From sequence record OK040907: a DNA stretch of 64,000 nucleotides; one strand, 5' to 3'. This document shows positions 5,703-27,476 of the stretch, one piece after another. The notes beneath the pieces were generated by a model. That model did no database searches and was not told the DNA's origin. It worked only from the letters and a program-made list of their open reading frames with translations. The translations under genes and the position numbers were made by a program. The DNA is from Enterobacteria phage Ac3. Within the stretch, counting starts at the first letter, position 1. Every line of letters begins with the position of its first letter.

Positions 5703-6383
5703 TTATTTTAATGTTACGAAAGAAGAATTGCGTGTTTCACGAATTAAAACTGATCCGTCGCGATTAATGTAATAAATTAAGCTAAACAAAGTTTGGTGTG
5801 CTGACGCGTGTTCAAAACTAGTTGGATGAGATTTCCAATCAGGAGTTTCAGCGATCCATTGATAAATCCACCAAGGAACCGTACAGAATCCTGGATTTTT
5901 CCCCAATAATTGAAGATTCGGGCTAAAGTTTTCCGGAAGAGTAAATACAGACGGCTTTTCAGATTCAATAATCTTATCTACAGCTTGTTCAAACTTTTCT
6001 TCAACAAAAGGAGTGTCTTCAATCAAAACATCAGTATTTTCAGGAATTTTATCCGTTTCTACCACTTCAATTTTAATATCAGATTTAACTGGAGAATCAA
6101 TCAGAAGTGCTGCTTCTGGATTAACTTCTTCATCGTCATATTTTAATCCCTCTGCAGCATCAGCAGCATCAATTAAGTCTTTAATAGATAACCCATCAGT
6201 CTCTGGCATAGGTTCACTAGCGAGCTTCTGGAGGGCTTCTTCAATATCAACAACGATATTATCAAAAGATTTATTCTTTTTGACCTTTATACCAAATTGC
6301 TCAGCATATTCAGCTAATTTAGCTTTAGCTTCTTTATTATCATCAAGAGCCTTTAACTCTGCAATATAATCTTTATCTATCAT
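5703..6383 (-). CDS. inh: inhibitor of prohead protease Inh
   Basis: 226-aa acidic ORF in the T4 inh position between hoc and uvsW. Confidence 0.75.
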   Translation of the reverse strand: MIDKDYIAELKALDDNKEAKAKLAEYAEQFGIKVKKNKSFDNIVVDIEEALQKLASEPMPETDGLSIKDLIDAADAAEGLKYDDEEVNPEAALLIDSPVKSDIKIEVVETDKIPENTDVLIEDTPFVEEKFEQAVDKIIESEKPSVFTLPENFSPNLQLLGKNPGFCTVPWWIYQWIAETPDWKSHPTSFEHASAHQTLFSLIYYINRDGSVLIRETRNSSFVTLK

Positions 6384-6406
6384 AATATTTCCTCAGTATA
6401 AATATA

Positions 6407-6414
6407 GATATATT
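6407..6414 (+). promoter_or_regulatory. T4-type late promoter TATAAATA upstream of uvsW
   Basis: exact TATAAATA about 20 nt upstream of the uvsW start. Confidence 0.65.
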
Positions 6415-6433
6415 TATTACATGGTATTTAGAC

Positions 6434-7945
6434 ATGACTGACATTAAAGTACATTTTTATGATTTTAGTCACGTGAGAATTGATTGTGAAGAAAGTACAT
6501 TTCATGAACTCCGTGATTTCTTTAGCTTCGAAGCTGATGGGTATCGTTTTAATCCGAAATACAAATATGGCCACTGGGATGGACGAATCCGTCTTTTAGA
6601 TTATAATCGTCTTCTTCCATTCGGCTTAGTCGGGCAAATTAAAAAGTTCTGTGATAACTTTGGCTATAAAGCCTGGATTGACCCACAAATTAACGAAAAA
6701 GAAGAATTATCAAGAAAAGATTTTGATGAATGGCTTTCTAAATTAGAAATCTATTCAGGAAATAAAAGAATTGAACCACACTGGTATCAAAAAGATGCAG
6801 TGTTCGAAGGATTAGTTAATCGTCGTAGAATTCTTAATCTTCCAACATCCGCTGGTAAATCTTTAATTCAGGCTCTGCTCGCTCGGTATTATTTGGAAAA
6901 TTACGAAGGTAAAATTCTTATCATTGTTCCAACAACTGCTCTAACAACTCAGATGGCTGATGACTTCGTTGACTATCGTTTATTCAGTCATGCAATGATA
7001 AAGAAAATTGGTGGCGGAGCATCAAAAGATGATAAATATAAAAATGATGCACCAGTCGTTGTTGGTACATGGCAAACTGTAGTTAAACAACCAAAAGAAT
7101 GGTTCTCACAGTTTGGAATGATGATGAATGATGAATGTCATCTTGCTACAGGAAAAAGTATTTCATCTATCATATCAGGTTTAAATAACTGCATGTTCAA
7201 ATTTGGTCTATCTGGTTCATTACGTGATGGCAAAGCCAATATCATGCAGTATGTTGGAATGTTTGGTGAAATATTTAAGCCAGTAACGACTTCTAAGTTA
7301 ATGGAAGATGGACAAGTAACTGAGCTAAAAATTAATAGTATTTTTCTTCGCTATCCCGATGAGTTCACTACTAAATTAAAGGGAAAAACTTATCAAGAAG
7401 AAATAAAAATTATTACGGGGCTTAGTAAAAGAAATAAATGGATCGCTAAATTAGCTATTAAGCTTGCGCAAAAAGATGAAAACGCTTTTGTCATGTTTAA
7501 ACATGTATCACATGGTAAAGCTATTTTCGATTTAATTAAAAATGAATATGATAAAGTTTATTACGTATCAGGGGAAGTTGATACCGAAACCCGCAATATA
7601 ATGAAAACCTTAGCTGAAAATGGTAAAGGAATAATTATAGTAGCTAGTTATGGTGTATTTTCTACTGGTATTTCAGTTAAAAATCTGCACCACGTTGTTT
7701 TAGCACACGGTGTTAAATCAAAAATCATTGTATTACAAACAATCGGTCGTGTATTACGTAAGCATGGTTCTAAGACAATAGCAACAGTCTGGGACCTCAT
7801 AGATGATTGTGGTGTTAAGCCAAAATCTGCTAATACGAAAAAGAAATATGTTCATTTGAACTATCTTTTAAAACACGGCATTGATCGTATTCAGCGCTAC
7901 GCAGATGAAAAATTTAATTACGTAATGAAAACAGTTAATTTATAA
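6434..7945 (+). CDS. uvsW: UvsW DNA/RNA helicase (SF2)
   Basis: 503-aa ORF; Walker A-like LPTSAGKS and DExH-like NDECH motifs; T4 gene order. Confidence 0.92.
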   Translation: MTDIKVHFYDFSHVRIDCEESTFHELRDFFSFEADGYRFNPKYKYGHWDGRIRLLDYNRLLPFGLVGQIKKFCDNFGYKAWIDPQINEKEELSRKDFDEWLSKLEIYSGNKRIEPHWYQKDAVFEGLVNRRRILNLPTSAGKSLIQALLARYYLENYEGKILIIVPTTALTTQMADDFVDYRLFSHAMIKKIGGGASKDDKYKNDAPVVVGTWQTVVKQPKEWFSQFGMMMNDECHLATGKSISSIISGLNNCMFKFGLSGSLRDGKANIMQYVGMFGEIFKPVTTSKLMEDGQVTELKINSIFLRYPDEFTTKLKGKTYQEEIKIITGLSKRNKWIAKLAIKLAQKDENAFVMFKHVSHGKAIFDLIKNEYDKVYYVSGEVDTETRNIMKTLAENGKGIIIVASYGVFSTGISVKNLHHVVLAHGVKSKIIVLQTIGRVLRKHGSKTIATVWDLIDDCGVKPKSANTKKKYVHLNYLLKHGIDRIQRYADEKFNYVMKTVNL

Positions 7946-8775: not shown

Positions 8776-9188
8776 TATTTTCCAGCCTCAAATGCCCGCA
8801 TGTCTTGAATATGCTTAATAGCAAATCCTCGTGATTTGATAGCATCAAGAGCTCCGCTACAGAAATCTAATAAAATTCCCCAATATTGTAATGAAGTATC
8901 AACCTTTAAAACATCCTTATCAGCTGATAGAACTGTTTTCATTTCTGATTTCTCGTAACGATCCATACTAAATTCATCACCATCTCCTCGTCCCGAGTAG
9001 TAGTCTAATTTAGCTTTAAGAGCAACTTTTTTCTGTGCTTCAATTCTAAGCATTTCCTTTTTAATACTTGAATGCTTATTAAGCCATTTACTATATAACA
9101 TCACATTATTAGCTGCTTCATACTGTAATTTAGTCGAATCTATAAACACATCTTTCTTCAATTCTTCTTGAAGATCTTCTAATCTCAT
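8775..9188 (-). CDS. uvsY: recombination mediator UvsY
   Basis: 137-aa ORF, same length as T4 UvsY; N-terminus MRLEDLQEELKKD. Confidence 0.9.
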   Translation of the reverse strand: MRLEDLQEELKKDVFIDSTKLQYEAANNVMLYSKWLNKHSSIKKEMLRIEAQKKVALKAKLDYYSGRGDGDEFSMDRYEKSEMKTVLSADKDVLKVDTSLQYWGILLDFCSGALDAIKSRGFAIKHIQDMRAFEAGK

Positions 9189-9254
9189 ATTGTTCTCTAT
9201 TCAATTGTTATTGGATGGACTTAGATTCATTATACCACGTTTATACGTGAAGCA

Positions 9255-9653
9255 TTATACTCTATTACTGGAAGCCAGTTGTAGTTTTATCTGCTCAATA
9301 TCATCAGGGTTATCGATGACTGAAAAGCGTATTTCTACTATCAAAGTATAATCATCATAAACCGGTATTACATTAACTGCTAATTTATCAATACGTGGCT
9401 CATAGTTTCTTACTGCGCTTTCGATATTACGCTCAACCGTGTCAGCAGTAAGAGGAGTCATATTCTCAAAAAGTTGGTCAGATAAATCGCATCCAAATTC
9501 AGGGTCAAACGGTCTTGAACCTTTTCTTGTTGTAATAATTCCTAAAAGACTATTTTTAATTGACCTTAATCCAAGTGATCTTGAAACGTCTTTGTTCCAA
9601 TCCATTTTCATCTCTGGGTCAATATCAGAATAAAGCTTATTAATATTTGCCAT
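9255..9653 (-). CDS. 25: baseplate wedge protein gp25
   Basis: 132-aa ORF, T4 gp25 length; position upstream of uvsY. Confidence 0.9.
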   Translation of the reverse strand: MANINKLYSDIDPEMKMDWNKDVSRSLGLRSIKNSLLGIITTRKGSRPFDPEFGCDLSDQLFENMTPLTADTVERNIESAVRNYEPRIDKLAVNVIPVYDDYTLIVEIRFSVIDNPDDIEQIKLQLASSNRV

Positions 9654-10279
9654 TACAATAGCTCAAAGAATTCTTTGAGTCCTCTTATTACATGAGCGTG
9701 GGTTTTTCCACACTCTGGACACTTAATTGGAACAGCCAAATAAACAGTAGGCTTTAAAAGCATATCTTTTATAGCTACAATATCTGACTCTGTGATGATA
9801 GAATATAAATCTTCCAATTCTTTTTCATTTAAGTCTTCAACTGGAATGCTTTCACCGTTAGCATGAATCGTTTCTATACATGATACTATCATGTGGGCTA
9901 TATTTTTATCATCAAAAATTTTAGGGTAATGGAATTTAATTTTAATGTCACCCAGTGTATACCAGAGGTCTTCTGGTGCATCTATTTGTGTATGTAATAG
10001 ATTTATATGGGTTGGTATTTCAGTTCCACAGGTGCACTTCCAGGAGTTTTCGTGATTAACTTCTCCAAGAGAATGCGCCCATAAATGAATCAGTAATAGT
10101 TCTGATTCTTGGCGGTTTAAATCTTTTGCATTTGTACAGTCTTTGATTAGCTTTTTAACAATCTCTTCTACTGAACCATTCTTTTTAGCAGTAATAAGTT
10201 CTAGATATTCTTTAAGAGTAAATGCGCGACAGTTGATTATTTTAGAACCAACTCTCACATCAAATTTGTATTCATACAT
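9653..10279 (-). CDS. 26: baseplate hub protein gp26
   Basis: 208-aa ORF, T4 gp26 length; overlapping stop/start with gene 25. Confidence 0.85.
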   Translation of the reverse strand: MYEYKFDVRVGSKIINCRAFTLKEYLELITAKKNGSVEEIVKKLIKDCTNAKDLNRQESELLLIHLWAHSLGEVNHENSWKCTCGTEIPTHINLLHTQIDAPEDLWYTLGDIKIKFHYPKIFDDKNIAHMIVSCIETIHANGESIPVEDLNEKELEDLYSIITESDIVAIKDMLLKPTVYLAVPIKCPECGKTHAHVIRGLKEFFELL

Positions 10280-19010: not shown

Positions 19011-21107
19011 TTATCCTTGAACGAACTTGTAAGGCATGTTTGTAATATCTATGCAAGACGCAATAATTCCAAGAGATGATTCTACTTTCTGTTTAACGTT
19101 TGATGAAACAAATGATGCAAAGTCAACTCTGTCTTCTATTTCAGTATCACCTGTCATTGCAACTACTTCACCGGTTTCCATTAAATGGTCTCCGTCATAG
19201 ATTACCGATTCGGTGAGCTCTTCCGTGGTCATAACTTCAGCTTGAATGAGTTTTGTATTATTAGATGTTGTTCCGTCATTATTAGAAGCATCAGTTATTT
19301 TATTAACTTTGACCATCAATCCACGCGGTAGAATAACTTCAGCTTCTGTTGCTATTCCGAGACTTCCTGGATATACAACATTAACTTTATGAGCTCCATC
19401 AATTGCCCATCCTATTTGAACTTTAACGTATTCAGGATTTTCTTTATACGCTCTTATTTCGTTTGGATTAATAGTTATTCCTTCTTCATTTTTATCAACT
19501 GTTAATTCATTGCGAGCTTCTGGTTCTAAAAGACCAATACCAGCATGTGTGATTCCAAAACGTCCAAAAATGATAGGAGTTAAAGAAGTAGATACAAAAT
19601 TTCTGAAGTAGAACACTTTATTTTTAACTAACGCTTCATATATAGGAGCAGTCATACTTTGAGCACGATAAACTGTAATGCCTTCTGGTATACGGTCACC
19701 ATTTTCAAAAGCTGAATCTAAGTTATTTATAGCAGATTCAATTTCTTTTTCACTCATTACATCATATCGTTCTGGATTGTAACGACCTAAAAGAAGATTA
19801 TTGATGTCAGTATATCCTGAACCACAATATTCTCTAATGCCACGCTTTTGTGATGGAGTATATTTAGAACCATCGCGGGCAATAGTAATATCAATCATTG
19901 GACCAGCACCAATTCCAGAAAAACTGTAAATCATTCGTTTGAGGAATTTAGTTTTTGCTGCGTTCCAGGAATTTTTAGTTATTTCTTCCCAGACTTCATC
20001 TGGTTGTCCTTTACGATTTTTATTATGATTAGCAAGCCATTTATCTTTATAATCTTCAAAGAATTGATTTACAGCTGCTGCGTATTTCTCTAAACATTTT
20101 ATTGAAGTAGTTGGTTCATTTTTAATTGCATTAAAAATTACTTCTTTAATTTTTTCTGAAACTTCACCGACTTGACTCATTGGAAAGAATTTATAATCAT
20201 AGTGAAGTTCATCTGCCGTTCCTTCAGCAATAATTTTTGCTGCCTTTGTTTTAGAAGCTAATGAATTAATTCCAATTTTCATTTCTTCTGCTTCGGGAAT
20301 TAAAGGTGCAGTAGCTGGTTTATTAAAATTAGCTGCTGTAGATTCATACTTCTGGAATAATTCACTTTCAAATCTAGAAGATTCCAATGACTGACTTTGT
20401 GCAATTGCTCTACGGGAAATTTTAACTTTAACGATTACGGCTTGGTCAGAACGTTTATCATTTTCTTGTGCAATAGATGCAGCAATTGCCTCATTTTTGG
20501 TTACTTGAGCTCCAGTATCTTTATTGATATAAACATCACCGACCTTCGATTCAACTTTAGTAAAGAGCTCGGTGCTAATTTCTGGAACTCCTGGAATGTC
20601 TTCTAGTGATACATTTTTACGATGTATAAGAATATATGCATACTTTTTATCGTAATCCCAGAGTTCCTTAAGAAGGACGTATCTGCCACCTGAACGACTG
20701 CGGATGAGTCTATCAGCAATAAGTTGAATTTGTCGAGCTTGACCTGCGGTTTTAGACTTAAGAATACGAAGCATGCAGGCATCAATTTTATATTGACGCA
20801 TTGTTTGCATTGCAACAGTAAAAACTGAATTGATATAATTAATCGGGCTTGGACCAAGACCTTTTAATTTAGCAATTGAACCTTTAGCAGTTAATGTAAA
20901 AGGAACAATATGCATCATTTTATCGCCCATCTTTAAATCACGATTAGTATCACCTCCAGATGTATAGGTACATAAACGAAAGCCTGGTTGTTCAATTGCA
21001 TCATCAACATGAACTGAAAAAATTTGTGGTATTTTCTTCTTTGGATTTAAGTTTGTAATCGGAAGAGTAGTATCTTCGTCAAATAATTCTGTAATGAGTT
21101 CCATCAT
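19011..21107 (-). CDS. alt: Alt-like ADP-ribosyltransferase, paralog 1
   Basis: 698-aa ORF; N-terminus MMELITELFDEDTTLPITNLNPKKKIPQIF; motifs YRAQ, FVSTS, EAEVILPRG; late promoter upstream; adjacent to gene 30 as T4 alt. Confidence 0.88.
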   Translation of the reverse strand: MMELITELFDEDTTLPITNLNPKKKIPQIFSVHVDDAIEQPGFRLCTYTSGGDTNRDLKMGDKMMHIVPFTLTAKGSIAKLKGLGPSPINYINSVFTVAMQTMRQYKIDACMLRILKSKTAGQARQIQLIADRLIRSRSGGRYVLLKELWDYDKKYAYILIHRKNVSLEDIPGVPEISTELFTKVESKVGDVYINKDTGAQVTKNEAIAASIAQENDKRSDQAVIVKVKISRRAIAQSQSLESSRFESELFQKYESTAANFNKPATAPLIPEAEEMKIGINSLASKTKAAKIIAEGTADELHYDYKFFPMSQVGEVSEKIKEVIFNAIKNEPTTSIKCLEKYAAAVNQFFEDYKDKWLANHNKNRKGQPDEVWEEITKNSWNAAKTKFLKRMIYSFSGIGAGPMIDITIARDGSKYTPSQKRGIREYCGSGYTDINNLLLGRYNPERYDVMSEKEIESAINNLDSAFENGDRIPEGITVYRAQSMTAPIYEALVKNKVFYFRNFVSTSLTPIIFGRFGITHAGIGLLEPEARNELTVDKNEEGITINPNEIRAYKENPEYVKVQIGWAIDGAHKVNVVYPGSLGIATEAEVILPRGLMVKVNKITDASNNDGTTSNNTKLIQAEVMTTEELTESVIYDGDHLMETGEVVAMTGDTEIEDRVDFASFVSSNVKQKVESSLGIIASCIDITNMPYKFVQG

Positions 21108-21127
21108 ATCCTCTCTAGTGTTTATTC

Positions 21128-21135
21128 TATTTATA
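21128..21135 (-). promoter_or_regulatory. T4-type late promoter TATAAATA (minus strand) upstream of alt
   Basis: reverse complement of TATTTATA about 20 nt upstream of the alt start. Confidence 0.6.
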
Positions 21136-21156
21136 AAATTAAAGGCCCGAAGGCCT

Positions 21157-21345
21157 TTAATAATCTATTGGTAATAGAGTACGATATATTTCAAACTTTG
21201 GACCTTTTTCATAAGCATCAAAAGTTTCTGTGAATTTATTATAAGCATATGCATCTATAAATTCAATCATGATTTGCGATACAGAAGTAGAAACATCTCC
21301 ACCTTCTTTTTGAGCCACGACAATTGTTTCTAAGTAAGCTTTCAT
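21157..21345 (-). CDS. small hypothetical protein between gene 30 and alt
   Basis: 62-aa ORF with stop/start overlap to gene 30. Confidence 0.5.
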   Translation of the reverse strand: MKAYLETIVVAQKEGGDVSTSVSQIMIEFIDAYAYNKFTETFDAYEKGPKFEIYRTLLPIDY

Positions 21346-22805
21346 AAACCAGTTACCTCATGAAAATCGCCAAATACATCTTCGAACGTATTAGCTTTAG
21401 TTTTATCTTCACGTAAACGAATCGCAATTGGAAGAAATAATTTAACGTAATCGGTGCGGCCATCAGATTTTAACCAACCGTTGCATTCGCACTCTAGAAT
21501 TTTTCCAATATAATAATTTTGGTTTTCCATAATGCGAGTACGGTCAAGTTCATGCGATTTTACACCAGCTTTATCTTTTAAGCCTGAACCAGCATTTACT
21601 TTAATTTTTCCACACTCTGACTCAAGAATAAATCCACCCGCTTTAGTAGGGTCTTTACGGTGAGGATAAATTCCTACAATTTTTAAATCAACATCAATTA
21701 CTTCTTTAAATTTATAAAGATTTTTTGAACGAGCATTTTCCCATAATCCATCGATATTTTTGAGAATAATACCTTCAAGACCTTGGTCAATATACTTTTT
21801 GTAAATTACCTTAGCTTCATCTAGGTTATTTACTACTTGGTTTTCAATTAAAATTACTTTATCATAGCCTGATGTCATTTGTTCTAGTTTAGAAAAACGT
21901 ACATCATATTTTAAACGAAACGCTGGAAGACCATATATTTCTACTAATGGAACATAGTCCCAGACCTGAAACTTCATGCATTGTGCTTCTTTTTCAGAAA
22001 TGGTTCCCTTTAAAGATTTATTAGCGATTCCATTAGAAGTAGTACGTGATTCAGCTACTTCGGCGAATTCTTTAGCTTTACTAATTTCAGGATAAGCATC
22101 AAAAAGAAAATCTAGGCCTTCTGGTTCCTTTTCAACTTGCTCATGGTATACCAATTCGCCATCAATTAACACACCTTCTGGATGAATCTGGCGAGCTTCT
22201 GCAGTCATTTTGATTAACTCTTCCTTGAGAAGATCTAATCCTAGATATTCATTACCAGCTCGTGATAAAAGACGAACATCATCTAATTCATCACCTCTGA
22301 CTTCAGCAAAGCACCGAGCTCCATCAGCTTTTAATTGGGCAAAGGCTGGAAATTTGATATTCTTATTAATGCCTTTTTCATCATAAGAACTTGCCAGCAT
22401 TTGAGGTTGTTCAGGAATTAAACCTGGCCAAACTTTGTTTGCAATAGATACTGATGCACCGCATTCAAGGTCTCGCATCATCACCCGACGCAAAACTTCA
22501 ACATCATCTTTTTTACCGTCAGCAATATATCCAGTTAATTCCTCAATTGCCGCATTTCCGGTCAATTTCCGAGTAGCTAACGTGAATTCAATGAAGTCAA
22601 GCATATCGGTAAGAGTCAACATTCCAAAACTCTGGGTAGCAATACCAGGTTTAGGCCATTTCTTGATATAATACTGTAACCCACGAGAATAAGTCAGACG
22701 ATATACTCGTTTAAGCAATTCATTATCTTTATTCTTTTCAAGAATTGCTTGCTTCTGCTTAGTTGAACCAATAGATGCTATTTCGTTCAGAATTTTAAGA
22801 ATCAT
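21342..22805 (-). CDS. 30: ATP-dependent DNA ligase gp30
   Basis: 487-aa ORF (T4 length); adenylation motif KADGARC (KxDG). Confidence 0.93.
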   Translation of the reverse strand: MILKILNEIASIGSTKQKQAILEKNKDNELLKRVYRLTYSRGLQYYIKKWPKPGIATQSFGMLTLTDMLDFIEFTLATRKLTGNAAIEELTGYIADGKKDDVEVLRRVMMRDLECGASVSIANKVWPGLIPEQPQMLASSYDEKGINKNIKFPAFAQLKADGARCFAEVRGDELDDVRLLSRAGNEYLGLDLLKEELIKMTAEARQIHPEGVLIDGELVYHEQVEKEPEGLDFLFDAYPEISKAKEFAEVAESRTTSNGIANKSLKGTISEKEAQCMKFQVWDYVPLVEIYGLPAFRLKYDVRFSKLEQMTSGYDKVILIENQVVNNLDEAKVIYKKYIDQGLEGIILKNIDGLWENARSKNLYKFKEVIDVDLKIVGIYPHRKDPTKAGGFILESECGKIKVNAGSGLKDKAGVKSHELDRTRIMENQNYYIGKILECECNGWLKSDGRTDYVKLFLPIAIRLREDKTKANTFEDVFGDFHEVTGL

Positions 22806-23071
22806 TGTTCATCCTTTAGAGTTTGGTTTACAGCTCTATTATAAATCAATTCATCATTAAGCTCAGTCAAAGACCTGTGGTACGTGGTTCTAACTTTATT
22901 TCCTTGCATCCAGTGCTTGACGTAAATGAAACCTTGCTCTACACATTTTTTAAAAATTCGTTCGTCTTTTTGAGCTCGAAATTCTGGATTGCATCTAAAA
23001 AATTGATTTACGTGACCGTAATCACGTGTAGTATTACCTTCATTTTCATAAATAGTGTGAACGACAAACAT
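22802..23071 (-). CDS. hypothetical protein (gene 30.x cluster)
   Basis: 89-aa ORF with overlapping stop/start. Confidence 0.55.
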   Translation of the reverse strand: MFVVHTIYENEGNTTRDYGHVNQFFRCNPEFRAQKDERIFKKCVEQGFIYVKHWMQGNKVRTTYHRSLTELNDELIYNRAVNQTLKDEQ

Positions 23072-23907
23072 TAGAATGCTCCTTGGAAAATATTATCACC
23101 ACCAGTAGGTCTATTATACAAATACTCTATGCCACCAGGTTTAATATAGTTCCATGTCTGAAACGGATGTGTCTGATATGGATGATATAGATTATAAGGA
23201 TTAAATCCAGGAGTTCTCCAGGTAGTGTTCCAAGGAAAAGAATCATTTTTAATCATCTTTTCAATTACATCTTTTATAGCTTTTTCACTATCAAAACTTT
23301 CTTTATTTTCCTTCGATGGAAAAAGCTTATTCTCTACATCATTCCATGTATAAACTCGCTGCGCAGTTTTTGGAATACTGTCACGCTCTCCTCGAGCCAT
23401 CCAATAAACAGGAACATTTAATATTTCACTCGCGTGATCGCAGTGGTGAGCGAGATCGTCAATATAACAAATTACGTTATATTTCTCTTTTGCCTTTTTG
23501 AACAACTCTTCTTTTGAAGAATCATGACCACACATCAATACTTCTGAGAAGGCACCAGGAAAAAGAGCATTCAAATTAAATTGACGATTTAGCAGAGCGT
23601 CAATAGAATCACCCAATGCTGTAACAGCTACAAAATTATAATCTTCTTTTAATTTGTTAATTACACACAGGGCATCTTTATACGGAGACAAGTAACGAAT
23701 AAAATCTGAACGATTGTATTTTTCAATTAACTTGACACCAAGTTCTTCATCGCAATTAAAGAGCTTACCAGGAGAAATAAATTTTTCGTCCTGAATCATT
23801 TTTAAAATATGTTCCAACGGAAGATTATATTTTTGAGCAAAATAAGGAAGACCTGATTGCCAGCTTAAACATACACCATCAATATCAGTCAAAATAGTAG
23901 GCTTCAT
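23071..23907 (-). CDS. HAD-like hydrolase family protein (gene 30.x cluster)
   Basis: 278-aa ORF; N-terminal LTDIDGV resembles HAD motif I (DxDG). Confidence 0.55.
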   Translation of the reverse strand: MKPTILTDIDGVCLSWQSGLPYFAQKYNLPLEHILKMIQDEKFISPGKLFNCDEELGVKLIEKYNRSDFIRYLSPYKDALCVINKLKEDYNFVAVTALGDSIDALLNRQFNLNALFPGAFSEVLMCGHDSSKEELFKKAKEKYNVICYIDDLAHHCDHASEILNVPVYWMARGERDSIPKTAQRVYTWNDVENKLFPSKENKESFDSEKAIKDVIEKMIKNDSFPWNTTWRTPGFNPYNLYHPYQTHPFQTWNYIKPGGIEYLYNRPTGGDNIFQGAF

Positions 23908-24368
23908 AGAGAGTCTCTTAATAGGTTTAACACATCAATAAATTCAGCTTCGGTTAGTATTGTATCATCTTTTGTTAGACTACTAGCCATGCTGTGCTTC
24001 AAAACTTTTCCTTTCGAGGCTTGTAATGCATCACGAAAGCCCTTGTTTTGAATCGCTGCCTCAAAATACGCATTTGTGTATAATTCTTTCCACGCTGGAG
24101 AGTATCTTGAAAACGGAACTCCGAGCCAGAAGAGGGTCCCACGGTCCTGAGCTCTAGCATAAGACCTTCCAGCTTGTTGGGCGGCAAGCCCGGATAACCC
24201 AAATACACGACGTTGCTGTTCAACATTTTTCACCTTACATCCTTGGAGAAATCCTTCAAGACCTCCAAATTGGATACCATCCATAACAAAAGGCCATTGG
24301 GCGAAATTACTTAATGCACACGATGGCCATCTAAAATTGCTTCTAATCTCTAACTCAGACATTTTCAA
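23904..24368 (-). CDS. YbiA/NADAR-like protein (gene 30.x cluster)
   Basis: 154-aa ORF; LSNFAQWPFVMDGIQF…GFLQGCK pattern resembles the YbiA/DUF1768 (NADAR) signature. Confidence 0.5.
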   Translation of the reverse strand: MKMSELEIRSNFRWPSCALSNFAQWPFVMDGIQFGGLEGFLQGCKVKNVEQQRRVFGLSGLAAQQAGRSYARAQDRGTLFWLGVPFSRYSPAWKELYTNAYFEAAIQNKGFRDALQASKGKVLKHSMASSLTKDDTILTEAEFIDVLNLLRDSL

Positions 24369-24561
24369 TACTTATAATTTCAACATCAGCCCAATGACCA
24401 TAGCAAGGAAGACGAAATTCAACTGGCCAGTTAGGGTCCTTTTCTAATATAATAGACTTAACTTGTGGTTCTTCATGTTCATCAGTATATGGATTTTTAT
24501 CTGTTACTTTATATGTGACCTTAATGTACTGAATTCCAAAAATCTTATTAATTATATTCAT
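24355..24561 (-). CDS. hypothetical protein (gene 30.x cluster)
   Basis: 68-aa ORF, tightly packed. Confidence 0.5.
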   Translation of the reverse strand: MNIINKIFGIQYIKVTYKVTDKNPYTDEHEEPQVKSIILEKDPNWPVEFRLPCYGHWADVEIISIENV

Positions 24562-24755
24562 ACTAATTCCTTTAATCCGTAAATAGGAGATAATTCATCA
24601 CCCATACGAAGGTCTTCATTTCCATCTACCCAGGAAACAATATAAGCCTCTTTTATTTGAACACCACTCCATTTAAATGGAGGTAGAACCTTAGAAATTA
24701 ATCCAGGTATACCAACTCCCTTTAATTCAACAGTTTGACCTAAAAAGAATTTCAT
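24558..24755 (-). CDS. hypothetical protein (gene 30.x cluster)
   Basis: 65-aa ORF, tightly packed. Confidence 0.5.
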   Translation of the reverse strand: MKFFLGQTVELKGVGIPGLISKVLPPFKWSGVQIKEAYIVSWVDGNEDLRMGDELSPIYGLKELV

Positions 24756-25042
24756 TAAAACCTCATCTGAAAACCATGCGATTTAACATTACCACCGCCA
24801 ATATCAGAAATGTTAATTTCACTCGCAATTGAAGGGTCAATGTCAATTTCGCGATTGAGTTTAGTGATAGCTAAAGTATCGTGCCCATTTACTGTACGGA
24901 ACTCTAGAGGACAAACCACATCAACGTAGTTTTTAATCGATTCACTGGTAGGCTGCAAATGAGCAGGAAGGTCTTTAGGCGCCTTTGAGAAAACAACTTC
25001 ACAGAAATTTTTGCGGGTATCAAAATAAGTAGTCATAAACAT
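24755..25042 (-). CDS. hypothetical protein (gene 30.x cluster)
   Basis: ORF track 24755..25093; start moved to internal ATG (MFMTTYFD) preceded by GAGGAAAA; hairpin GGGGC-CGAA-GCCCC lies just upstream. Confidence 0.5.
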   Translation of the reverse strand: MFMTTYFDTRKNFCEVVFSKAPKDLPAHLQPTSESIKNYVDVVCPLEFRTVNGHDTLAITKLNREIDIDPSIASEINISDIGGGNVKSHGFQMRF

Positions 25043-25082
25043 AGTATTTTCCTCAGTAAGGGGCCGAAGCCCCTGTTTTATT

Positions 25083-25448
25083 TTAAATATCAAATTCGTT
25101 AAGAACTACATCAAAGATTGCTTCAAGATGCTCAGGTTTAGCTCTGTTACTCAAAATATGACGAATCCAAGTTTTAACCAGAAGCTTACGATTAGCGCCA
25201 TTCCAGCAAGGATGGGTCCCTAAATCGCGTTGACGAAAATCATCATCCAGAGCGATTTTGAAGTTTGAACCTTCCATTGTGATTGAAACCGTGATGCCAT
25301 TTTCAAATCGCATATAAACGTAATTAGGAGTCATATACTGTTCAATTTCGCATACTGATCCATTTTGATGTTTCCAAAGGCAAATAGTATCAATAGAACC
25401 TGCAATACCATTAGAAACATATTTACGTTCAAAGTTGATGTAGTTCAT
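25083..25448 (-). CDS. hypothetical protein (gene 30.x cluster)
   Basis: 121-aa ORF downstream of an early promoter. Confidence 0.55.
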   Translation of the reverse strand: MNYINFERKYVSNGIAGSIDTICLWKHQNGSVCEIEQYMTPNYVYMRFENGITVSITMEGSNFKIALDDDFRQRDLGTHPCWNGANRKLLVKTWIRHILSNRAKPEHLEAIFDVVLNEFDI

Positions 25449-25485
25449 TTTTATTCTCCGAGATGTTTAATTGCGGTACAGGTAT

Positions 25486-25514
25486 ATAATATCATATCCT
25501 GTACCAAAGTAAAC
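25486..25514 (-). promoter_or_regulatory. T4-type early promoter (GTTTAC, 17-nt spacer, TATTAT)
   Basis: minus strand GTTTACtttggtacaggatatgaTATTATATA upstream of the 121-aa ORF. Confidence 0.6.
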
Positions 25515-25516
25515 AA

Positions 25517-25849
25517 TTATTTTACTACTTTCCAGTGCTTCATGTCAAGTTTACCAACTTTTTTCATCTTCTCAATCAAACGTTCGGCACGTTGGCGAGC
25601 TGTAACATAATACCATTCGCCTAATTCATTTTGTTCAATTTTTCCAACGATTACTGTATTCAATTCATAAATCCAACCAGTAAAGAAATTATGAACTTGA
25701 ATTGTAAAGGTGAAATCTGTTCCCATACCTTCTGTTGTTTCTACTTCAATAATATCACCTTCAACTGCCATTAAGAACCACATAGTTTCATCATATTTAC
25801 CATTGAAGCATTTAGTCTTAACTGCAGCGTTCAGATTAATCGTTTTCAT
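25517..25849 (-). CDS. hypothetical protein (gene 30.x cluster)
   Basis: 110-aa ORF. Confidence 0.55.
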   Translation of the reverse strand: MKTINLNAAVKTKCFNGKYDETMWFLMAVEGDIIEVETTEGMGTDFTFTIQVHNFFTGWIYELNTVIVGKIEQNELGEWYYVTARQRAERLIEKMKKVGKLDMKHWKVVK

Positions 25850-25959
25850 TTTATTCTCCTTTGTTTGTGTAAGATAATACTATCACAAAGGAACCATATT
25901 GTAAACAACTTTGTGTAATCTTTGGAAAATAAAAAAGGACTCCCGAAGGAGTCCTCAAC

Positions 25960-26178
25960 TTATGCTTTCTGCTTACCAAAACGAGAAGCATCATCTCGAA
26001 GAACCGCACGTGCTCGGCGCATGATCTTCTCAACAGTTTGATTGATACGAGAGTTCGACCCACGCTTGTAGCCAGCGCGTTTAGAATCACCAACTTTCTT
26101 TTCAACTGCTTTCTTTGCTTTAGCTTGTTTTGCCATTATAAATTCTCTTTTAAATGAAAATGCAGGACTTATTGGCAT
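25960..26178 (-). CDS. small highly basic protein (gene 30.x cluster)
   Basis: 72-aa ORF MAKQAKAKKAVEKKVGDSKRAGYKRG…, Lys/Arg-rich. Confidence 0.5.
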   Translation of the reverse strand: MPISPAFSFKREFIMAKQAKAKKAVEKKVGDSKRAGYKRGSNSRINQTVEKIMRRARAVLRDDASRFGKQKA

Positions 26179-26379
26179 TGCCTGCGCAAGCCCTCAAGGG
26201 GAACATAGGTTTTGGATATTTAACGACAGGATAACCATAAACCCGTCATCATTCACATTCAAGAGGTACACCATAAAACTGCCGGGGTCTTAAAACTATA
26301 ATGATTCGCAAATCATTAATCAGACAGTTCGATGGCTCCTCGATTTTAGCTCACACTAAGGCAGTGAATCTCCAATAAA

Positions 26380-26628
26380 TTACTTCAGTGTTACCACAAA
26401 GTGACGAACTGCTTTTCGTGCAGCAGAAGCCAGAGGCTTAGCATACTTAAGTTCATCTTTTTCCTGAAGCTCAGCAGCTAATGCAGTTTGAGCAGGATTC
26501 AGATGTTTGAAATAACGCAGGATTTCAAGAGCTTCGGCTTCAACATCAATAGATGCGCCATAGTTTTCGTGACCATTATTCCATGCGTTTCGTTGCAGTT
26601 CAAGAGCGTGTTGTAATTGTTTAATCAT
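26380..26628 (-). CDS. rIII: RIII lysis inhibition accessory protein
   Basis: 82-aa ORF (T4 rIII length) between the 30.x cluster and gene 31. Confidence 0.7.
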   Translation of the reverse strand: MIKQLQHALELQRNAWNNGHENYGASIDVEAEALEILRYFKHLNPAQTALAAELQEKDELKYAKPLASAARKAVRHFVVTLK

Positions 26629-26775
26629 TTAAAAATTCTCGTTAGAGATTAAAACTCGGTAGTCACGTTCTTCTGAATTTCATCTTCTTTCGACAGATCT
26701 CTCAGTTGTAGACTACCACATAGAATTGTTCGGTTAACTTATTATTCCGACACCCAATTCATATTATTATTTATA

Positions 26776-27111
26776 TCACTTATAAAGACACGGAATAGCT
26801 TTATAGTGACAAGTAACGAATTTTTGTTTAATTTCTTTTGGCTGCTTAAGACCCAGAGCTACAAAAGGATGCGGAACATTTCGAATTTGACCAACTGGAA
26901 GAGAAGTCAAATCACCAACTTCGCAAAAACCTTCAGGAACATCAGGACCAACAGAGTGAACTACACACAGTTCAGGAACTTCACCTTGAACACGTTTACC
27001 GATAATAAGTCCTGATTCTGTAACTTCTTCATCACCGGCTTGTGCGGGTTCAGAAACTAAAATAACATATTCACCGACAGCACGAATTGGTAGCTGTTGT
27101 ACTTCAGACAT
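26776..27111 (-). CDS. 31: co-chaperonin gp31 (GroES analogue)
   Basis: 111-aa ORF, T4 gp31 length; N-terminus [29 protein letters not shown]. Confidence 0.9.
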
Positions 27112-27167
27112 CGTTTTTCCTTTTTGTTAACAGATGAATTAATAATAACAAATAATTCTTAAAGCAT

Positions 27168-27476
27168 TTATTTACCAATAAATTGGAGTAAATGCTCAAC
27201 TTTCATACCATTAACAGAAATCAATTTGTCAATAGAAAAACCTCGCCATGCACCAAGTTCAACATCAAATATTGGAATCATGTCAGTAGATTCTTTCCGA
27301 GTCGATTCAGTCAATTTACCAGTTTGCATGGTTGGCATAAAGTCTGCGTCACGAGTACCTTTCATAGTACGAATAGTACCATCAGACTTTTCAAAAACTA
27401 CGTTTGAAACACCCATGGACAGTTTAGTTTTCAAAATTTCACGAATTGCTACTTTTTGTTCAGTCGTCAGTTTCAT
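27168..27476 (-). CDS. hypothetical protein (31.x-like)
   Basis: 102-aa ORF between gene 31 and cd. Confidence 0.55.
   Translation of the reverse strand: MKLTTEQKVAIREILKTKLSMGVSNVVFEKSDGTIRTMKGTRDADFMPTMQTGKLTESTRKESTDMIPIFDVELGAWRGFSIDKLISVNGMKVEHLLQFIGK

Follow-up and report, generated by a model that had tools for sequence, protein, structure and literature searches.

The window analysed here, a stretch of 64,000 nucleotides from Enterobacteria phage Ac3 (sequence record OK040907), carries alt, alt.1, 30, 30.1, 30.2, 30.3, 30.4 and, further on, rIII, 31 and cd in exactly the gene order of T4, and it is 100% identical to the T4-like phages RB51 and RB68 across genes 30.1 to 30.5. All genes from alt to cd are encoded on the minus strand, with the ligase gene 30 at lower plus-strand coordinates than gene 30.3. 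Gene 30.3 therefore lies transcriptionally upstream of the ligase gene (30.4, 30.3, 30.2, 30.1, 30), the reverse of the "downstream of DNA ligase" given in an earlier note made from the sequence alone. The genes and reading frames considered are:

19011-21107, minus strand: alt, encoding the ADP-ribosyltransferase that is packaged in the T4 capsid
23071-23907, minus strand: gene 30.2, annotated as hypothetical, neighbour only; its start overlaps the adfN stop (ATGA)
23904-24362, minus strand: adfN (gene 30.3), 152 aa from ATG with the TGA stop included; predicted ADP-ribosylglycohydrolase of the phage NADAR clade
23999-24226, minus strand: ORF 30.3', 75 aa, out of frame inside adfN and annotated in T4 as an internal translation product
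24366-24368, minus strand: in-frame TTG two codons 5' of the adfN ATG, the source of a length of 154 aa and probably not a real start

The protein had previously been described as 154 aa long. The ORF is real, and the minus-strand frame 24368-23904 does give 154 aa when the TTG is taken as first codon, but this length is probably two residues too great: the ATG at 24362-24360 is the likely start of gene 30.3, giving 152 aa, and is preferred because both the T4 annotation and published expression constructs begin there; the published adfN cloning primers start ATGTCTGAGTTAGAG (PMC11257639). The first codon of 30.3 shares bases with the stop codon of gene 30.4 (ATGTCTGA), and its TGA stop (23906-23904) does so with the ATG of gene 30.2. 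Within the run from 30.7 to 30, adfN sits closely between neighbours that overlap it. A scan of positions 21000-27200 for promoters and terminators gave no excess over shuffled sequence (21 promoter-like matches versus 21.5, and 3 terminator-like matches versus 3.3). The alt gene is located about 3 kb from adfN, and an ADP-ribose writer and an ADP-ribose eraser are therefore encoded in the same phage region.

The gp30.3 protein matched the Pfam family PF08010 (Phage_30_3, "Bacteriophage protein GP30.3") along the entire profile (138 positions; E=4e-70; score 234 bits, cut-off 36), as well as the PHROGs family phrog_652 of unknown function (E=2e-51). Since homologues were also found in 1510 phage records covering many host genera, the ORF lies far beyond chance expectation. 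Compared with T4 gp30.3 (NP_049816), 149 of the 152 residues are identical (98%), the differences being V53I, M125I and S128G (window residue, position, T4 residue), and the two genes share the same gene order and the same overlapping start and stop codons. The RB14 protein is 100% identical to that of the window. The ORF thus corresponds by orthology to T4 gene 30.3, for which the name adfN (anti-DarT factor NADAR) is now in use, and its product belongs to the AdfN/gp30.3 phage clade (PF08010) of the NADAR superfamily. Nearly all sampled records among the 1510, including those of RB51 and RB68, label gp30.3 as "hypothetical protein", and it is here that the assignment is of value for annotation.

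Placement of gp30.3 in the NADAR superfamily depended on the family profile rather than on the single sequence. When the window protein was compared directly with the Pfam NADAR profile (PF08719), no match was obtained at E<=1, and NCBIfam and PADLOC searches with gp30.3 likewise returned no match. A single-sequence phmmer search against the PDB gave only a spurious match to an N-type ATP pyrophosphatase (E=0.5). The plain NADAR/DUF1768 profile search that had been proposed as a check consequently misses the AdfN/gp30.3 clade and would wrongly reject the NADAR idea. The protein database yielded 104 homologues. JGI names several of them "YbiA (DUF1768 family)", and for one there are precomputed matches to both PF08010 and PF08719. 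In an alignment of 68 full-length gp30.3 homologues, 26 members individually matched Pfam NADAR (best E=1.5e-7), and the profile built from this alignment retrieved a single sequence from the PDB, E. coli YbiA (2b3w, E=0.0048). As the single-sequence phmmer search had failed to reach YbiA, the family profile was needed for this step. A profile alignment by hhalign of the 68 homologues with YbiA covered residues 15-122 with a probability of 94% (E=1.5e-7). Moreover, the AlphaFold2 model of gp30.3 built on the same alignment was confident (pLDDT 93.7, pTM 0.89) and has the YbiA fold, a helical core between two small sheets. The earlier description of the protein as YbiA/NADAR-like is upheld by these remote-homology and fold tests: gp30.3 is a member of the NADAR superfamily through a link that is real but remote, and PF08010 and PF08719 are separate Pfam entries within one superfamily.

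The residues expected of a NADAR enzyme are all in place. Both motifs that had been picked out from the sequence, LSNFAQWP and GFLQGCK, are present, and the features of the protein map as follows:

24291-24314, minus strand: LSNFAQWP, residues 17-24, aligning with FSNFAAWP of YbiA
24234-24257, minus strand: EGFLQGCK, residues 36-43, including E36 and K43 (GFLQGCK being residues 37-43, 24254-24234)
24257-24255, minus strand: E36, contact to the distal ribose, invariant in the 68 homologues
24236-24234, minus strand: K43, contact to the phosphate, conserved in at least 90% of the 68 homologues
23994-23996, minus strand: H123 in the last strand, marking the phage NADAR clade, invariant in the 68 homologues
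23910-23951, minus strand: C-terminal helix, residues 138-151, a helix in the AlphaFold2 model and intact in the window

Within the first motif and its flank, A16, L17, S18, N19 and F20 are invariant across the gp30.3 family. E36 and K43 align with E48 and K55 of YbiA. In the Phytophthora nicotianae enzyme PnNADAR, E43 and E125 hold the distal ribose and K50 the phosphate (PMC11543638); the ribose-binding Glu and the phosphate-binding Lys (E43 and K50) are both found in gp30.3 as E36 and K43, and the corresponding E36A and K43A mutants of T4 AdfN are inactive (PMC11257639). The position of E125 is occupied by Glu in the YbiA family, by Asp in the DarT1-associated BC4488 family and by His in phage NADARs (PMC11543638; PMC11125620). 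The hhalign alignment ends with K122 opposite V124, and an ungapped extension by one residue sets H123 opposite E125 of YbiA. The proposed structure prediction and active-site comparison thus gave a confident model with E36, K43 and H123 all present, as they are in T4 AdfN. By comparison with PnNADAR, E36 and H123 would flank the distal ribose, while K43 would hold the phosphate.

This active site bears on the question of whether gp30.3 might be a housekeeping N-glycosidase of the YbiA type, acting on reactive intermediates of the riboflavin pathway or in other small-molecule metabolism and not as a DNA-acting anti-defence enzyme. E. coli YbiA, annotated as an N-glycosidase with a housekeeping role in riboflavin metabolism, is the closest solved relative detectable by sequence, and the nucleotidase-like neighbour gp30.2 hints at a setting in nucleotide metabolism. 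The YbiA family (E. coli YbiA, 2b3w; P. nicotianae NADAR, 8bau; PF08719), however, shows only about 20% identity to gp30.3, and its family-defining Glu (E125) is replaced by His (H123), for which reason membership of gp30.3 in the YbiA family was rejected. Furthermore, YbiA-type enzymes also remove ADP-ribose from cytidine, whereas the T4 NADAR acts on guanosine-ADPr and not on cytidine-ADPr (Toxins 2026, PMC12945103), and the published phylogeny places the AdfN clade nearest to the DarG1 NADARs and not to YbiA (PMC11257639). Since the T4 protein, 98% identical to that of the window, has ADP-ribosylated DNA as a substrate and its deletion phenotype is specific to DarTG1 (PMC11257639; PMC11125620), we regard a housekeeping function of this kind as extremely improbable.

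The second group for comparison is DarG1 (BC4488 family; Geobacter lovleyi NADAR, 8bat, and E. coli C7 NADAR), an antitoxin associated with DarT1. The phage gene is an orphan in this respect: no DarT gene was present among the annotated genes surrounding gp30.3, its neighbours being the T4 genes 30.4 and 30.2, and PADLOC gave no match for either gp30.3 or gp30.2. The N-terminal extension of DarG1 is absent from gp30.3, which with 152 aa consists of the core only, compared with 219 aa for 8bat, and the catalytic Asp in the last strand of DarG1 corresponds to His in gp30.3. An assignment of gp30.3 as DarG1 was rejected on these three grounds. In addition, T4 AdfN cannot substitute for DarG1 as an antitoxin in uninfected cells (PMC11257639; PMC11825919).

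The gene family, its fold, catalytic residues, activity and role against DarTG1 are already known and were published between 2023 and 2026. T4 gp30.3 reverses guanine-ADPr on DNA in vitro but not thymidine-ADPr (Toxins 2024, PMC11125620). Resistance of T-even phages to DarTG1 was mapped to gene 30.3, which was renamed adfN (bioRxiv 2024, PMC11257639; Nat Commun 2025, PMC11825919). Deletion of adfN from T4 or T2 lowers plaquing on DarTG1 cells by about four logs, RB69 is rescued by AdfN supplied in trans, and purified AdfN strips ADP-ribose from DarT1-modified DNA (PMC11257639; PMC11825919). T4 AdfN was shown to be necessary and sufficient for DarTG1 resistance (PMC11825919; PMC11257639). The suggestion in the earlier note that a phage NADAR could counter DarT-type toxins is accordingly borne out by experiments on the T4 orthologue for DarT1, which modifies guanine, but does not extend to DarT in general, as AdfN does not counter the thymidine-modifying DarTG2 (PMC11257639).

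Taken with the orthology described above, we consider it highly probable that the window ORF encodes a 152-aa single-domain ADP-ribosylglycohydrolase of NADAR fold, the RB51/RB68 orthologue of AdfN, which counters DarTG1. Upon infection of a DarTG1 host, DarT1 would attach ADP-ribose to the N2 of guanine in the phage DNA, whereupon replication would be blocked; AdfN would hydrolyse the bond between guanine and ribose, restoring unmodified DNA. The enzyme would in this way serve the phage as an orphan equivalent of the DarG1 antitoxin. By analogy with T4 AdfN, the window allele (V53/M125/S128) is expected to behave like its orthologue in activity, in specificity for guanine-ADPr and in the anti-DarTG1 phenotype.

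One ground for caution concerning this allele is that inactive or fragmented forms of the gene occur naturally. RB69 is a DarTG1-sensitive phage whose frameshifted allele loses the C-terminal helix (PMC11257639); the frameshift was confirmed in the RB69 sequence, where gp30.3 ends ...DDTILT at residue 137, with EAEFIDVLNLLRDSL in another frame, and many relatives are fragments of 83-126 aa. Moreover, the window protein differs from the tested T4 protein by three substitutions, two of them near H123: M125I and S128G fall in the loop just past this catalytic residue, a part of the model with reduced confidence (block means 83-88). A non-functional RB51/RB68 allele that, like that of RB69, gives the phage no protection is nevertheless highly improbable, as the window frame is of full length with an intact C-terminal helix and all invariant residues of the family, all three replacements are conservative, and the same protein recurs unchanged in RB14. 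M125 is also found in RB69, and M125 together with S127 in Dhakavirus proteins, which identifies M125 and S128 as natural variants.

Another reading concerns the breadth of targets. The main natural substrates of gp30.3 might be guanine-ADPr marks made by toxins besides DarT1, RNA included, with DarTG1 merely one source among several. The authors of the AdfN study themselves allow for the detoxification of DNA ADP-ribosylating defences not yet discovered (PMC11257639), and the occurrence of homologues in 1510 phage records from many host genera is consistent with a wider use. To date, however, an in vivo phenotype has been demonstrated against DarTG1 alone (PMC11257639; PMC11825919), and we judge this reading unlikely; it would extend, rather than replace, the assignment of the window protein as an AdfN orthologue directed against DarTG1.

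Uninfected E. coli is not protected from DarT1 by AdfN, and the rescue of phages that are not T-even is only weak (PMC11825919); the mechanism of AdfN in vivo is therefore only partly understood. Full activity is confined to T-even infection, and the authors suggest that a further T-even protein is required (PMC11825919). The product of the overlapping gene 30.2 was considered as a candidate for this T-even factor.

No match to Pfam was obtained for gp30.2. The conserved HAD signature is nonetheless evident in its family, in agreement with the HAD-like hydrolase that had been noted beside gp30.3: in 50 homologues, the motif I-IV residues D8xD10, K132 and D150-D151 are invariant, and T96 is present in at least 90%. 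The first 190 residues of the AlphaFold2 model have a pLDDT above 90, while the model is poor for the C-terminal tail, which is about 80 aa long; this tail is missing from many homologues, namely those of 200-220 aa. The best Foldseek matches of the model were 5'(3')-deoxyribonucleotidases along with further HAD enzymes (2jao first, E=5e-8), and the gp30.2 family profile also found the deoxyribonucleotidase 2jao (E=0.016). The conserved motifs, the model and the profile show that gp30.2 has a HAD fold and that it resembles 5'(3')-deoxyribonucleotidases.

Several observations are compatible with gp30.2 as the partner that AdfN requires for full activity: the ATGA overlap of adfN and 30.2, the presence of gp30.2 in RB69, which is rescued by AdfN in trans, and the similar spread of the two genes, each of which is found in about 1450-1510 phage records, with counts per genus that hardly differ. 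Adjacency of the pair in Dhakavirus, Mosigvirus, Gualtarvirus and an Acinetobacter phage points the same way. No gp30.2 neighbour was present beside the gp30.3 homologue in RB49-like and Ochrobactrum phages. The IMG/VR loci that carry a gp30.3 homologue, 78 of them usable, included 13 with gp30.2 directly beside it, 4 with gp30.2 up to 2.5 kb downstream and 1 with gp30.2 at another place in the locus; the flanks of the other 60 lacked gp30.2, and the loci with gp30.2 downstream of the gp30.3 homologue came from closer relatives only. A HAD gene of the Pfam family NT5C that directly follows the gp30.3 homologue in the Vibrio phage QD01 would also favour a link, but its protein aligned with the gp30.2 profile only over the 24-residue region of motif I (74% probability). 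A conserved coupling of gp30.3 and gp30.2 was rejected because adjacency is confined to closer relatives, and the linkage looks like local synteny instead. It is accordingly very unlikely, in our estimate, that gp30.2 is the required T-even partner. In RB43, the pair is split by an HNH homing endonuclease gene. A 254-aa gene beside the gp30.3 homologue of a jumbo phage was also examined as a possible gp30.2 and dismissed as unrelated.

The internal ORF 30.3' is unlikely to be a real second product and was rejected as such. Between Dhakavirus and the window, its identity is 57% at the amino acid level compared with 80% at the nucleotide level, while the main frame shows 84%. Furthermore, its ATG is replaced in many relatives, and internal stops occur in RB69 and in one IMG/VR phage (L025). 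As amino acid identity falls faster than nucleotide identity, the ATG is lost and internal stops appear, 30.3' is judged unlikely to be under coding selection and is, from the sequence comparison, probably not a conserved coding frame.

Finally, many of the gp30.3 relatives from T4-like phages in the protein database are either fragments of the size given above or joined to further domains from the 30.x block, namely PF11097, PF06919 (gp30.7) and PF06019 (gp30.8). These fragmented and fused relatives suggest that this block undergoes frequent frameshifts and deletions, as with the RB69 allele. A distant homologue of gp30.3 (38% identity) was located in a 308-kb contig, probably a jumbo phage, that has no DarT gene; the contig regions concerned are 6001-6468 and 9115-9879. 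Genes for a NUDIX hydrolase and for a Thg1-like protein lie within about 4.5 kb of this homologue; as NUDIX enzymes can degrade ADP-ribose, a link between the NUDIX hydrolase and the gp30.3 homologue is conceivable in this contig.
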